In this document: one piece after another, positions 1-24,205 of the stretch | Numbering within the stretch: position 1 is the first letter of the stretch | How the letters are laid out: each line of letters begins with the position of its first letter | Source: Gammaproteobacteria bacterium | GTDB taxonomy: Bacteria > Pseudomonadota > Gammaproteobacteria > Burkholderiales > Rhodocyclaceae | DNA: 64,000 bases | Direction: 5' to 3' | Assembly (NCBI GenBank): GCA_018824085.1 | Contig: JAHJHI010000054.1 | Location: 7,362 to 71,361 of the forward strand | The notes under the pieces: model-generated | Database searches by the model: none | What the model was told of the DNA's origin: nothing | The model's input: only the letters and a program-made list of their open reading frames with translations | Position numbers and translations under genes: made by a program

Positions 1-501
1 GCCGGCGAGGCGCACGATCTGCTCCAGCGCGGCCTTGCTCGTCTGCGCCATCATGAAGCGCGACACCGGCGCCTCGGCGATCTTCAGCGCCTGTTCGAGA
101 CTGATGCTCTCCTGGTCATAGGGCACGAAGGCGTCGGCCCAGATCTGTTCGCCGATCGGGCGCATGACGAGCAGCGTCAGGATCAGCGCGATGCCGGTCA
201 CGATGCGGTTCGGCAGGCCCTGCTGCAGGCCCAGTGCCTGGCGCAGCAGCGACAGCACGATGATGAAGCGCGTGAAGCTCGTCATCATCATGACCATGAC
301 GGGCAGCAGCCCGAGCAGGGTCATGATGATCAGGATCTGCGTCTTGATCGAGAATTCGGTGGTTGCGCCGCCGGTCGTCGATTCGAGCAGTGCGATGTTG
401 GCCGCGTCCGCCGACGCGCACGCCAGCAGCGTCGCACCGGCCAGCAGCAGCGCGCACAGGTTCGGGATCGACGACCGTCCGCGGGACGATCGCGGGGTCA
501 T
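1..501 (-). CDS. fliP: Flagellar export protein FliP (3' end runs off the window)
   Basis: Not in the ORF track. Manual translation from the ATG at 501 gives a signal-like N-terminus, then EFSIKTQILIIMTLLGLLPVMVMMMTSFTRFIIVLSLLRQALGLQQGLPNR, the FliP hallmark. ATGA overlap with the fliN stop. Confidence 0.93.
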   Translation of the reverse strand, partial: MTPRSSRGRSSIPNLCALLLAGATLLACASADAANIALLESTTGGATTEFSIKTQILIIMTLLGLLPVMVMMMTSFTRFIIVLSLLRQALGLQQGLPNRIVTGIALILTLLVMRPIGEQIWADAFVPYDQESISLEQALKIAEAPVSRFMMAQTSKAALEQIVRLAG

Positions 502-18044: not shown

Positions 18045-18656
18045 CTACTTCGCGGAGCGTTCGCCGTGCACGACTTCGACCAGCTTGATCGCCTGCTGCT
18101 CCATGTCCACGACGAAGTCATCCACCAGCCCACGGAAATAGCGGTGAAAGATGAGCGCAGGAATGGCGACCAGCAAGCCGAATCCGGTGTTGTACAGCGC
18201 AATGGAAATACCGCTGGCGAGCTGCTGCGGATTGGCGCCGCTCGCCGTCTGGGAACCGAAGATTTCGATCATGCCGACGACCGTGCCGAACAGTCCCATC
18301 AGCGGCGCTGCGGCGGCGATGGTGCCGAGCGTGGTGAGATAGCGATCGAGATGATGCGCCACGGCGCGCCCCTCTTCCTCGATGGATTCCTTCATGACGA
18401 TGCGCGGACTGCGCACGCTGCGCAGTCCCGCCGCCAGCACGCGGCCAAGCGGCGAGTGGTTCGCAACACGACGTATCATGTCGGCGCCGGGCTGACCGCC
18501 CTTCAGGTCGGTCACGATGGAATCCAGCAATCCCGGAGGCACCACCTTGCTGCGACGCAGGCTTGTCAGCCGTTCCAGAATCAGCGCTAGCGCAATGATG
18601 GAGGCGGCGATCAACGGCCAGATCGGCCAGCCAGCCGCGCGGATGATGTCAAACAC
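18045..18656 (-). CDS. exbB: MotA/TolQ/ExbB proton-channel protein
   Basis: LGTIAAAAPLMGLFGTVVGMI, GISIALYNTGFGL; GTG start at 18656. Confidence 0.9.
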   Translation of the reverse strand: MFDIIRAAGWPIWPLIAASIIALALILERLTSLRRSKVVPPGLLDSIVTDLKGGQPGADMIRRVANHSPLGRVLAAGLRSVRSPRIVMKESIEEEGRAVAHHLDRYLTTLGTIAAAAPLMGLFGTVVGMIEIFGSQTASGANPQQLASGISIALYNTGFGLLVAIPALIFHRYFRGLVDDFVVDMEQQAIKLVEVVHGERSAK

Positions 18657-18747
18657 GTGGGATCCCCCGGTGAACAAGCGGCGAACTGTAGCCTGCGGGA
18701 CGTGACGGAGCAACCCTGGCCGGGCGGCACCGGCGCAGCCCGGCAAG

Positions 18748-18783
18748 GTTATCCACAGAAATTGTGGATAACTGTGTGGGTTT
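18748..18783. promoter_or_regulatory. DnaA-box cluster: two perfect inverted boxes plus one degenerate box (DARS-like layout)
   Basis: TTATCCACA (18749-18757), 5-bp spacer, TGTGGATAA (18763-18771), 3-bp spacer, TGTGGGTTT (18775-18783). Confidence 0.8.
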
Positions 18784-18898
18784 CATCGGGACTCCCGCGC
18801 TAAACCGCCCCGGGGTAAGCATTTTTCTTACACCGATCAAAAATTAAGCTTCCGTGAAGCGATCATTGCAGATTGATCACGGAACCCTTCGGAGCCAC

Positions 18899-20257
18899 AT
18901 GGTCCAAAGCAGCCCGACAGCCCCCCCGGACGGGGCGATCGCCGTTTCCGAACTGGCACGCCGTGCCCGGCTCACGCTTGAGCGCAGCTTTCCCGTGCTG
19001 TGGGTGAGCGGAGAACTGTCGGGCGTGACCCGCGCGACATCCGGCCATCTGTATTTTTCGCTCAAGGACGAAAGTGCCCAGGTCCGCTGCGTCATGTTCC
19101 GCAGCCGCAGCCAGTTGCTTGCGTTCGAGCCACGGCCCGGACTGCGGGTCGAGGTCCGCGCCCAGGTGTCGCTGTACGAAGCACGCGGCGACTTCCAGCT
19201 GACCGTCGACGCGATGCGCCGCGCCGGCGTCGGTGCATTGCACGAAGCCTTCCTCCGCCTGAAGGCCGATCTCGAGCGCGAAGGCCTGTTCGACGCCGCG
19301 CGCAAGCGTGCGCTGCCGGCCTTGCCGGCACGGCTCGCCATCGTGACGTCACCGGGCGCGGCCGCTTTGCGTGATGTGTTGTCAACGCTGGCGCGACGCG
19401 CACCGCACATCGGCATCGTGCTGCTGCCCTGCCTGGTGCAGGGCGCAGAGGCACCCGCTCAGATTGCAGGGGCCATCATGCGTGCCGGCAGCACCGGATG
19501 CGACGCCGTACTGGTCGTGCGCGGCGGCGGTTCGGCCGAAGACCTGATGGCCTTCAACGACGAGCGCGTCGCGCGTGCCATCGTCGCGTGTCCGGTACCG
19601 GTCGTGAGCGGTGTCGGGCACGAAACCGATTTCTCCATCGCCGATTTCGTCGCCGACGTCCGCGCCGCCACGCCGACCGCGGCCGCGGAGCTTGTCAGCG
19701 CCGGCCACGTCGAGGCCATCGCCCGGCTGGCTGCGCTCGCGGCGCGGCTGTCGCGAACGACGCGGGCGATGCTCGACGCGCGCGGACAGAAGATGGACGA
19801 CCTGTCGGCGCGACTGCATCCGCCACAAAGACAGATGGCGCTCGCGCGCGAGCGGCTGCATGCGCTGCATGAGCGTCTGCGCCGGGCACACGCAGTCGAC
19901 CGGGCTCGCGATGCGCGCCACACCGCCGCCATCACCCTCCGCATGCTCAATGCGCGGCCTGCGCTCGCGCTCAGGCGGGCCACGCTGAGCCGGCTTGCCG
20001 AGCGTCTGCACGGTGCGGCAAACGGCATGCTGGACAAGGCGCGCCACCGCGCCGGCCTGGCGGGCGCCCAGCTCGCTCAGCTCGATCCGGGCGCCGTCAT
20101 GTCGCGCGGTTTTTCCATCGTGCGCGATCACGACGGACGCATCGTGCGCAACACGGATGGAATTCATGCCGGGGACCGGTTGTCAGTCCAGTTCTCGCAG
20201 GGGCATGCCGACGTCAGGGTCGAGAAGTCATGCCGGAATTCCACCGGCAAAGACTGA
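18899..20257 (+). CDS. xseA: Exodeoxyribonuclease VII large subunit
   Basis: WVSGELSG...SGHLYFSLKD, VTSPGAAALRD, RGGGSAEDL, GVGHETD, TPTAAAE. Confidence 0.96.
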   Translation: MVQSSPTAPPDGAIAVSELARRARLTLERSFPVLWVSGELSGVTRATSGHLYFSLKDESAQVRCVMFRSRSQLLAFEPRPGLRVEVRAQVSLYEARGDFQLTVDAMRRAGVGALHEAFLRLKADLEREGLFDAARKRALPALPARLAIVTSPGAAALRDVLSTLARRAPHIGIVLLPCLVQGAEAPAQIAGAIMRAGSTGCDAVLVVRGGGSAEDLMAFNDERVARAIVACPVPVVSGVGHETDFSIADFVADVRAATPTAAAELVSAGHVEAIARLAALAARLSRTTRAMLDARGQKMDDLSARLHPPQRQMALARERLHALHERLRRAHAVDRARDARHTAAITLRMLNARPALALRRATLSRLAERLHGAANGMLDKARHRAGLAGAQLAQLDPGAVMSRGFSIVRDHDGRIVRNTDGIHAGDRLSVQFSQGHADVRVEKSCRNSTGKD

Positions 20258-23197: not shown

Positions 23198-24205
23198 TTA
23201 TAGCGTTTGTTGCAGCGCACCAGAAGATTGAGCGCCACCGATGATGTCGAGTGTCACATGCGACAGCGAGGGCAGCGCCTCCAGAGCGTTGCGCAGCGCG
23301 CCGGTATCGGTCCGGGCGGACGTGCTGACACTCAGCACGAGCGCGTGCCGGCCGGGTGCCAGCAACCACAGGTGCTCATCGAGCACACACGCTCCCTGAG
23401 CCGTCACGGCGGCATGCACCGCTTCGCGCAGCCTCCCCTCCACCTGACTGTCCAGCAGCACCGTCGCACTGTCGCGCACGAGCAACCAGGCCCAGCGAAG
23501 GATAAGCACGCCGCCCATCGCGGCCATCACCGGATCGAGCCAGGGCATGCCGGCCCATTTTCCGGCAAGCAGCGCCAGAATCGCGGCGATCGATGTCAGC
23601 GCGTCGGCCAGCACGTGCAGGTAGGCGGCACGCAGATTCTGGTCGTGCCCATGAGCGTGTCCGTGATCATGTCCTTCGGCATGGGCATGGGCATGGCCAT
23701 GAACACCGTGCCCGTGCGCAGCGCCGCCTCCGCCATGCAGCAGCCAGGCGCAAAGCACGTTGACCGCGAATCCGAGGACGGCCACTACCAGCGCCTCGTC
23801 ATAATGAATCGTCCGCGGCGCCTGCAGGCGCATTGCCGCCTCGAAAAGCATGGCCAGCGCGACGCCGGCCAGCAGGAGTCCGGAAGAATAACCCGCCAGA
23901 TAGGACACCTTGCCGGGCCCGAACGTGAAGCGGGAACGACCGGCGTGTGCCCGCATGTAGGCATAGGCAAACACGCCTATGCCCATGGCAGCGACGTGGG
24001 TTGCCATGTGCCAGCCGTCGGCGAGCAGCGCCATGGAACCTGACAGGTATCCGGCGGCGATCTCCGCGACCATCGCGATGGCAGTGATCCACAGCACGCG
24101 ACCGACGGCGCGTTCGGCGCGATCCGGCGCAACCGAGAAATCGGGTCTGTGCACGGGGCAGAACGCCGCCGCATCCGTCTTGTCGTTTGATTGGCTTTCA
24201 TGCAT
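23198..24205 (-). CDS. dmeF: CDF-family Co/Ni efflux transporter with His-rich loop
   Basis: SMALLADGWHMATH, His-rich loop, DQNLRAAYLHVLAD. Confidence 0.88.
   Translation of the reverse strand: MHESQSNDKTDAAAFCPVHRPDFSVAPDRAERAVGRVLWITAIAMVAEIAAGYLSGSMALLADGWHMATHVAAMGIGVFAYAYMRAHAGRSRFTFGPGKVSYLAGYSSGLLLAGVALAMLFEAAMRLQAPRTIHYDEALVVAVLGFAVNVLCAWLLHGGGGAAHGHGVHGHAHAHAEGHDHGHAHGHDQNLRAAYLHVLADALTSIAAILALLAGKWAGMPWLDPVMAAMGGVLILRWAWLLVRDSATVLLDSQVEGRLREAVHAAVTAQGACVLDEHLWLLAPGRHALVLSVSTSARTDTGALRNALEALPSLSHVTLDIIGGAQSSGALQQTL

Follow-up and report, generated by a model that had tools for sequence, protein, structure and literature searches.

Locus and DnaA-box core

The DNA analysed was a stretch of 64,000 nucleotides (contig JAHJHI010000054.1 of assembly GCA_018824085.1, positions 7,362 to 71,361), referred to below as the window. 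In it, a divergent intergenic region of 242 bp between an exbB-like gene and xseA carries three DnaA boxes, which probably form an element of the kind known from Escherichia coli as DnaA-reactivating sequence (DARS). On the minus strand the exbB-like gene heads a cluster continued by exbD, lpxK, ycaR/trm112, kdsB and adk; on the plus strand sodB is the next gene after xseA. The distance from the box pair is 92 bp to the start of exbB and 128 bp to that of xseA. Coordinates are collected in Table 1; offsets given with a plus sign are counted from box I towards xseA.

The segment 18748–18772 is GTTATCCACA-gaaat-TGTGGATAAC, a perfect 10-nt inverted repeat with a 5-nt gap; within it the core, 18749–18771, is TTATCCACA-gaaat-TGTGGATAA, two opposed perfect DnaA boxes (box I, box II); a degenerate third box of the same orientation as box II follows at 18775–18783. 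Perfect boxes (TTATCCACA) in the 64-kb window: two, namely boxes I and II (mean of shuffled sequences 0.12; two perfect boxes reached in 0 of 100 shuffles). The relaxed consensus TTWTNCACA was matched in the window by the same two boxes only; allowing one mismatch added a single unrelated site at 24085, 5 kb from the core. An earlier note on this DNA had described a perfect 10-bp inverted repeat made of two consensus DnaA boxes, a third degenerate box 3 bp further on, and the position of the cluster between exbB and xseA, near lipid A/Kdo genes; the box trio is real, the observation was confirmed in each of these parts, and annotation of the neighbours gave the gene context as claimed.

Table 1. 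Position of the DnaA boxes, conserved motifs and adjacent genes in the window
Feature	Position	Strand	Remarks
Left arm of inverted repeat, GTTATCCACA	18748–18757
Right arm of inverted repeat, TGTGGATAAC	18763–18772
DnaA box I, TTATCCACA	18749–18757	+	perfect consensus
Spacer GAAAT, boxes I–II	18758–18762		5 bp, as in E. coli DARS cores
DnaA box II, TGTGGATAA on + strand	18763–18771	−	perfect consensus, head-to-head with box I
DnaA box III, TGTGGGTTT	18775–18783	−	6/9 match, 3 bp past box II, orientation of box II
CTAAAC	18800–18805		local form of cTAAGt at +51, conserved at betaproteobacterial loci
GTAAGCATTTTTCTTAC	18815–18831		local form of aAGGnTTTTt at +68, conserved at betaproteobacterial loci
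Candidate Fis site, GATCAAAAATTAAGC (GnnYAnnnnnTRnnC)	18835–18849		+86 from box I, contains ATCAAAAATTAA
exbB-like gene, MotA/TolQ/ExbB family	18045–18656	−	GTG start at 18656, 92 bp left of box I
xseA, exonuclease VII large subunit	18899–20257	+	ATG at 18899 = +150 from box I; TIGR00237, 446 bits

Conservation of the core upstream of xseA

Genomes, one per species, were scanned with the XseA protein, and the best 80 loci (betaproteobacterial; XseA 44–74% identical) were taken as the sample. Their record titles named Rhodocyclaceae, Azoarcus, Accumulibacter, Propionivibrio, Sterolibacteriaceae, Sulfuriferula, Sideroxydans, Nitrosospira, Nitrosomonas, Chitinimonas, Jeongeupia, Iodobacter, Chromobacterium and others; no named genome of Burkholderia, Neisseria or Bordetella was among these best 80 matches. 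The earlier note had proposed a check of conservation upstream of xseA in Betaproteobacteria, and the outcome was strongly positive: the box pair was present with at most 3 mismatches over 18 specified positions at 63 of the 80 loci, and with both boxes perfect at the same spacing at 26 of them. The 5-bp length of the I–II spacer was invariant wherever the pair occurred; outside the element, one perfect box was found in ca. 700 kb (80 loci of ca. 9 kb).

Conservation was best in box II, which reads TGTGGATAA in 55 of the 64 sequences aligned; box I was perfect in 31 of them, its variants keeping CACA. For box III, TGTG was at least 80% conserved in register and the tail was variable: relatives have TGTGGATnn, TGTGGGTAA or TGTGCATAA, and TGTGGGT is invariant in the Methyloversatilis clade, to which the best XseA matches of the window belong (at most 74% identity). 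No conservation was seen on the exbB side; on the xseA side the register was ungapped for ca. 100 bp. Conservation is thus asymmetric, box II being kept better than box I and box III standing on one side only, which argues against a symmetric operator of a dimeric regulator and is expected for a DARS core.

The element stays with xseA where exbB is replaced. At three loci the left neighbour is convergent on the element (L037, H+-pyrophosphatase; L053, GDT1; L080, YfiH-like protein), and at two others (L060, L065) a gene is inserted between element and xseA, with the module described below still intact. PriA was considered as left neighbour in the Rhodocyclaceae loci without exbB and was rejected, the neighbour being a Sel1-repeat protein.

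Comparison with the DARS cores of E. coli

The bioD-uvrB and rppH-mutH regions of E. coli MG1655 were taken and the DARS cores were located there (Table 2). Box orientations, the 5-bp gap from box I to box II and the 3-bp gap from box II to box III are the same in the window, DARS1 and DARS2. DARS boxes I and II are 9-mers 5 bp apart; head-to-head contact of DnaA releases ADP and box III aids oligomer formation, box II of DARS1 being a full-consensus box (Sugiyama et al. 2019, PMC6868365). The statement in the earlier note, that an E. coli DARS core has two opposed boxes plus a third, agrees with the MG1655 sequence and with that paper; the alignment it had recommended gave identical spacings and orientations, a closer match than the earlier reader could see.

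Table 2. Cores of DARS1, DARS2 and the exbB–xseA element
Core	Box I	Gap I–II	Box II	Gap II–III	Box III
DARS1	TTATCCACT	attcc	TGTGGATAA	cca	TGTGTATTA
DARS2	TTATTCACC	ttttc	TGTGGATAG	agt	TGTGAAGAA
Window	TTATCCACA	gaaat	TGTGGATAA	ctg	TGTGGGTTT

DARS1 (bioD-uvrB, 101 bp) resembles the window element in trio geometry, in the full-consensus box II (TGTGGATAA), and in its intergenic position beside a DNA-repair gene; it requires neither IHF (integration host factor) nor Fis and in this respect is like the window's short form, which has no IHF site. It differs from the window in gene context (uvrB versus exbB/xseA), in one mismatch in box I (perfect in the window), and in that the window has a conserved Fis consensus at +86, DARS1 not being known to use one; moreover, the activity of DARS1 is demonstrated, whereas that of the window element is predicted. 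DARS2 (rppH/ygdT-mutH), which consists of a core, IHF-binding sites (IBS) 1–2 and Fis-binding sites (FBS) 2–3, has the same core geometry as the window. The window neighbours, exbB and xseA, show no synteny with the E. coli loci (uvrB of DARS1, mutH of DARS2), and neither UvrB nor MutH adjoined the core in any of the 120 metagenome contigs listed in the scan described below; synteny marks orthology, not mechanism.

Short and long forms of the element

Predicted Fis site: GATCAAAAATTAAGC was the sole match to the Fis consensus within 200 bp either side of the window's box I, and it fits the higher-resolution Fis consensus, GNTYAAAWTTTRANC, at 12 of 13 positions. The full Fis consensus was found at +85/86 in 27 of 62 genome loci (background ca. 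0.1 per offset) and at +86 in 33 of 105 metagenome loci (0.1–0.2 per offset elsewhere); the G and C of the site, 14 nt apart, were invariant in an alignment of 37 betaproteobacterial sequences. The earlier note had pointed to an imperfect IHF-like site near 18836. The string is there (ATCAAAAATTAA, 18836–18847) and is imperfect, with 7/9 matches to the IHF consensus WATCAANNNNTTR; the Fis consensus, of which it forms part, is the better reading. Its ATCAA is lost in the close relatives L003 (GACTAAAAATTAAGC) and L004 (GTACAAAAATTAAGC), both of which keep the full Fis pattern, and the IHF reading was dropped in favour of Fis, the ATCAA core not being kept and G-N13-C and the Fis pattern being kept.

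IHF consensus and fourth DnaA box: in relatives, WATCAANNNNTTR occurs at +119..122 in constant orientation, with 8–9/9 matches in about half of the genome loci, and perfect IHF matches within 200 bp either side were nearly all at this offset. A fourth box (box IV), in the orientation of boxes II and III, was found at +189..197 in 28 of 63 genome loci. In the window and its four Methyloversatilis relatives (L001–L004) conservation ends at ca. +105, and xseA starts at +150 to +208. As judged by these motifs, the window's Methyloversatilis clade carries a short form, i.e. the core and the predicted Fis site; most relatives carry a long form of ca. 215 bp, which adds the IHF consensus at +120 and a putative box IV at ca. 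+193 (Betaproteobacteria) or ca. +204 (Gammaproteobacteria), one helical turn separating the two classes.

Two further motifs, cTAAGt (+51) and aAGGnTTTTt (+68), stand between the core and the Fis site at the betaproteobacterial loci (L001–L080) and are absent from the gammaproteobacterial contexts; they matched none of the consensus sequences tested, and no RNA structure was predicted for them.

Occurrence of the module beside unrelated genes

Metagenomes were scanned for nothing but the core, specified as box I and box II, both perfect, plus TGTG from box III, and at least 120 contigs were obtained; 113 of them had at least 150 bp after box I, and 112 of these were distinct (<80% identity outside the pattern). 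The exbB/xseA context was found in only ca. 20 of the 120 contigs listed. Sites in the 112 distinct loci: G-N13-C at +85..87, 93; full Fis consensus at +85..87, 42 (control offsets 0); IHF consensus (at least 8/9) at +118..123, 66 (control offsets 2–3). The contigs with other contexts carry the same flanking Fis and IHF sites, although the search pattern did not include these. Box IV was present at +200..208 in 49 of 98 metagenome loci other than xseA.

Two contexts recurred in the metagenome contigs (L084–L203, e.g. L089, L092, L103) when the neighbouring proteins were clustered and searched against NCBIfam. In the first, a divergent priA starts at about −173 and a gene for an extracytoplasmic function (ECF) sigma factor is often found on the other side; one PriA of this context is 72% identical to that of Beggiatoa alba. 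On the contig of B. alba itself (L204, GCA_017116535.1, ca. 1700–1926) the module is complete and lies 173 bp upstream of priA, with the core followed by GGTTAAATATTAACC, TATCAATGTGTTA and, at +215, TGTGAATAA. In the second context the element stands between a divergent gltA or M48 protease gene and the 3' end of hemW; among named sequences, the citrate synthase was matched best by metagenome-assembled genomes (MAGs) of Gammaproteobacteria (86% identity), and box IV was found at +201..205, just past the hemW stop codon, in 26 of 27 loci. With the 3' end of hemW on the right, no gene in that context can be transcribed rightward from the element.

Because the neighbours are unrelated and some left genes are convergent, no single transcription unit fits the module, which by its distribution behaves as an autonomous cis-element and not as a gene-specific promoter. 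DnaA control specific to xseA or to the lipid A/Kdo operon, as entertained in the earlier note, was not borne out, the same module standing beside unrelated gammaproteobacterial genes.

Viral contigs: 34 contigs of IMG/VR (L205–L238) carry the core pattern I-5-II-3-TGTG without the Fis and IHF sites; they fall mostly into two sequence families and encode genuine phage genes. At L212:3207–3236 the trio is at the 3' end of a DNA helicase gene, beside a minor head protein gene; at L208:1560–1589 it is between the genes of the small and large terminase subunits. These trios may serve phages in binding the DnaA of the host or in manipulating it.

The long module and DARS2

DARS2 of MG1655 has its two IHF sites at +93 on the minus strand and at +109 on the plus strand, next to the PciI site mentioned in PMC11724364; further out come the FBS2-3 region, with its Fis consensus at +145, and a perfect DnaA box (+211). 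DARS2 and the long module are alike in having DnaA boxes, IHF and Fis on the box III side, in ca. 215 bp and with tightly fixed spacing; the long form has the same composition (DnaA, Fis and IHF) as that on which E. coli DARS2 depends. A further DnaA box stands near +200 in the module family and at +211 in DARS2, and the module's IHF site at +120 and IBS2 of DARS2 at +109 are about one helical turn apart. They differ in the orientation of the distal box, which is opposite, and in the mutH context of DARS2, which is not shared; the window's own clade, unlike DARS2, has kept neither the IHF site nor the distal box. In the window the Fis consensus, at +86, occupies the position conserved in the family, between the core and the IHF position, whereas the essential FBS2-3 of DARS2 is placed otherwise. 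A profile of the module detected DARS1 in an 8.4-kb test set (E 8e-11, mostly via the core) and, by opening a gap of 12 nt, aligned IBS2 of DARS2 with the IHF site of the module. The activity of DARS2 depends on where IBS1-2 and FBS2-3 are placed (Kasho et al. 2014, PMC4245941), and this dependence fits the near base-pair-exact spacing of the module.

We propose tentatively that the ca. 215-bp arrangement (trio, Fis at +86, IHF at +120, box IV) may be an ancient nucleoprotein module and the ancestral, permuted form of DARS2, the window copy having been shortened, and that DNA-catalysed recycling of ADP-DnaA under control of Fis and IHF may be general in Fis-bearing proteobacteria. This reading draws on the near base-pair precision with which the module is kept in Beta- and Gammaproteobacteria, in at least three neighbourhoods (exbB/xseA, priA/ECF sigma factor, gltA or M48/hemW). 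If it is true, recycling of ADP-DnaA by DNA would not be an enterobacterial speciality.

Two side observations were made in the MG1655 regions. In DARS1 (L081, bioD-uvrB, 1429–1441) an IHF-like 13-mer, TTTTAACTGGTTA (7/9), preceded by a T-tract, is found at +121 from box I; its offset is that of the module's IHF site, and this may be chance or a relic. In the rppH-mutH region (L082, 1452–1486) a second trio-like arrangement, TTATCCCAG-5-TGTGGATAA-3-GGTGTAAGA, lies ca. 316 bp past the DARS2 core, inside or beside ygdT; it probably corresponds to the dispensable DnaA boxes IV–VI of full-length DARS2.

Interpretation

The exbB–xseA element is best regarded as a DARS-type DnaA-binding element, i.e. 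a non-coding chromosomal site at which a small DnaA oligomer would assemble on three boxes; we hold this view with moderate confidence, by analogy with E. coli. The boxes, their geometry, its identity to the layout of the E. coli DARS cores, the deep conservation and the independence from any one neighbour gene are properties of the DNA itself: there is a head-to-head pair with a 5-bp gap, a box III at 3 bp, a full-consensus box II, and an intergenic position outside oriC that is conserved in relatives. A DARS-like function is the most likely one in view of this geometry, the conservation and the E. coli precedent, and on that basis we infer that DnaA and Fis bind, that ADP is released and that initiation is affected. 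The earlier note had left the choice between a DnaA-reactivating or titrating locus and control of xseA or the lipid A/Kdo operon; its DARS-like core geometry and its conservation stood, the gene specificity and the IHF site did not.

The following course of events is proposed. DnaA would first occupy the perfect box II. A second protomer, facing it head-to-head over the 5-bp gap, would then be recruited to box I, and a third, placed head-to-tail over the 3-bp gap, to box III. Contact within the head-to-head pair would loosen the ADP bound there, and the freed apo-DnaA would rebind ATP to give initiation-competent ATP-DnaA. Fis at +86 may couple this activity to the growth phase; in relatives with the long form, bending by IHF might bring the fourth box or Fis towards the core.

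Several points weigh against this interpretation. The order of sites in DARS2, core–IHF (+93/+109)–Fis (+145), is unlike that of the module, core–Fis (+86)–IHF (+120). The window and L001–L004 have no IHF site of at least 8/9 (the best, 7/9, is at +86 and overlaps the Fis site), and the fourth DnaA box is absent from the same five loci. Methylophilaceae, some Nitrosomonas, Nitrotoga, Accumulibacter phosphatis and a Burkholderiaceae MAG have the element in degenerate form or not at all, so that it is not indispensable. In many betaproteobacterial relatives box IV stands 2–4 nt before an extended −10-like TGnTAnAAT, with the xseA ATG 7–10 nt further on, as would suit an operator. E. coli datA also has DnaA boxes, a head-to-head pair and an IHF site (PMC11724364), yet has the opposite activity. 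Reactivation, finally, is proposed by analogy with E. coli, and the sequence is compatible also with titration or transcriptional control.

Alternative explanations

DnaA-dependent operator: together with Fis, DnaA might act as a transcriptional regulator at the divergent promoters of xseA-sodB and/or exbB-exbD-lpxK-kdsB-adk and so couple DNA repair or envelope synthesis to the replication cycle. We consider this rather unlikely as the function of the element, though it is a real alternative that is compatible with the DARS-type reading and does not exclude it, E. coli DARS1 likewise lying in the promoter region of uvrB. The element does lie in a divergent intergenic region, at 92 and 128 bp from the two starts, and it accompanies xseA where exbB is replaced. 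The arrangement of box IV and TGnTAnAAT (about +189..+250 from box I; e.g. L031, L025, L024, L053, L069, L009), which the window's clade does not have, points to a nearly leaderless xseA promoter that DnaA occludes in many Betaproteobacteria; there DnaA probably represses xseA as well. E. coli promoters regulated by DnaA and Fis, e.g. nrdAB, guaB and dnaA, are like the module in having DnaA boxes and Fis sites upstream of DNA-metabolism genes, and in betaproteobacterial relatives box IV overlaps the likely xseA promoter; they are unlike it in that they are not known to have the DARS trio or to occur as a portable module beside unrelated genes. Against an operator, a scan of 18500–19050 of the window gave zero sigma-70-like promoters, and no −35/−10 element is conserved in register with the core; the module of core, Fis, IHF and box IV stands beside unrelated genes, including the 27 loci with the 3' end of hemW on the right, and at loci with a convergent left gene; simple repression does not need the exact I-5-II-3-III geometry. 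E. coli guaB is known to have a DnaA box; the xseA-guaB region of E. coli has no such cluster, and no trio was found there as a relic of the element upstream of xseA.

Negative DnaA sink: the element might delay initiation by titrating DnaA with high affinity or, like datA, by promoting DnaA-ATP hydrolysis. Two perfect boxes are strong binding sites, and in the long form boxes stand on both sides of the IHF site, as in datA and the left half of oriC; datA (glyV-queG; DnaA-ATP hydrolysis, with head-to-tail oligomers of ATP-DnaA) is moreover a non-coding box cluster with an IHF site and a head-to-head pair that acts on the nucleotide state of DnaA. However, datA of MG1655 consists of a single perfect box, an IHF site 65 bp on and then a head-to-head pair with a 3-bp gap, so that its IHF site, which is essential, lies between separated boxes and there is no I-5-II-3-III trio; the spacing in the window equals that of both DARS cores exactly. 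Three boxes would titrate little DnaA, and the short form in the window is without the IHF site that datA requires. A datA-type architecture was rejected on the grounds of this geometry and of the missing IHF site; a negative role in general fits the geometry less well than a DARS-like one and is judged improbable.

That the repeat has nothing to do with DnaA, being a 25-bp palindromic operator of another dimeric regulator, part of an origin, a structured RNA or a chance repeat, is very improbable: it is a perfect palindrome, but both arms are the exact DnaA-box consensus, conservation is asymmetric, the third box (and the fourth in relatives) in one orientation breaks the symmetry, and chance is ruled out by the shuffles and by conservation across XseA proteins only 44–55% identical. 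An oriC was rejected (monotonic GC skew, only three boxes, no AT-rich unwinding element); the cumulative GC skew was monotonic over the whole 64-kb window, so that neither origin nor terminus is nearby. A structured RNA or riboswitch in the xseA leader was likewise rejected: Rfam gave no match to the element above chance (one snoRNA model at E 0.05, below its gathering score), and RNAalifold on the 37 betaproteobacterial sequences gave 0 pairs.

Relation to published work

DARS elements are central to current models of initiation timing in E. coli; they have been demonstrated only in that species and reported as conserved only in its close gammaproteobacterial relatives. Conservation of DARS2, its core lying near mutH, was published for eight E. 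coli-proximal Gammaproteobacteria ranging as far as Vibrio, Shewanella and Aeromonas (Kasho et al. 2014, PMC4245941, Fig. S10). A 2018 review states that in V. cholerae DARS-like sequences stand at the positions they have in E. coli, and a 2017 review mentions 'beta- or gamma-proteobacterial species' without data. In the literature searched, no DARS was reported outside E. coli and its relatives (an earlier remark in Fujimitsu et al. 2009 is possible), and none of it linked DARS or DnaA boxes to xseA, Betaproteobacteria, Pseudomonas or Burkholderia. Within that literature the window element is the first DARS candidate beyond the close relatives of E. coli; more novelty attaches to the wider module, in which the order of Fis and IHF is permuted and which stands in multiple contexts.

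With a candidate of the same core geometry conserved in Betaproteobacteria and in basal Gammaproteobacteria, it can be tested directly how general DnaA nucleotide recycling is, and the natural variants (short form, long form, permuted Fis/IHF order) can serve for dissection of the contributions of Fis, IHF and the distal box. For annotation, the trio with its flanking sites provides a simple searchable signature of a regulatory non-coding element that is ignored by current pipelines.

Further observations on the window

No fis gene was found in the 64-kb window, a window of such size being uninformative on the presence of fis. The scan of 18500–19050 gave a weak terminator-like hairpin on the minus strand (18860–18848). 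It is overlapped by a perfect inverted repeat of 8 nt, TTCCGTGA/TCACGGAA, whose arms stand 19 nt apart (18850–18884), just 5' of the xseA start; this repeat is not kept in L001–L004. In a search of sequence runs, DNA of the window was matched in groundwater and other metagenome DNA runs only; a single metatranscriptome contained 14% of the sampled words of the window.

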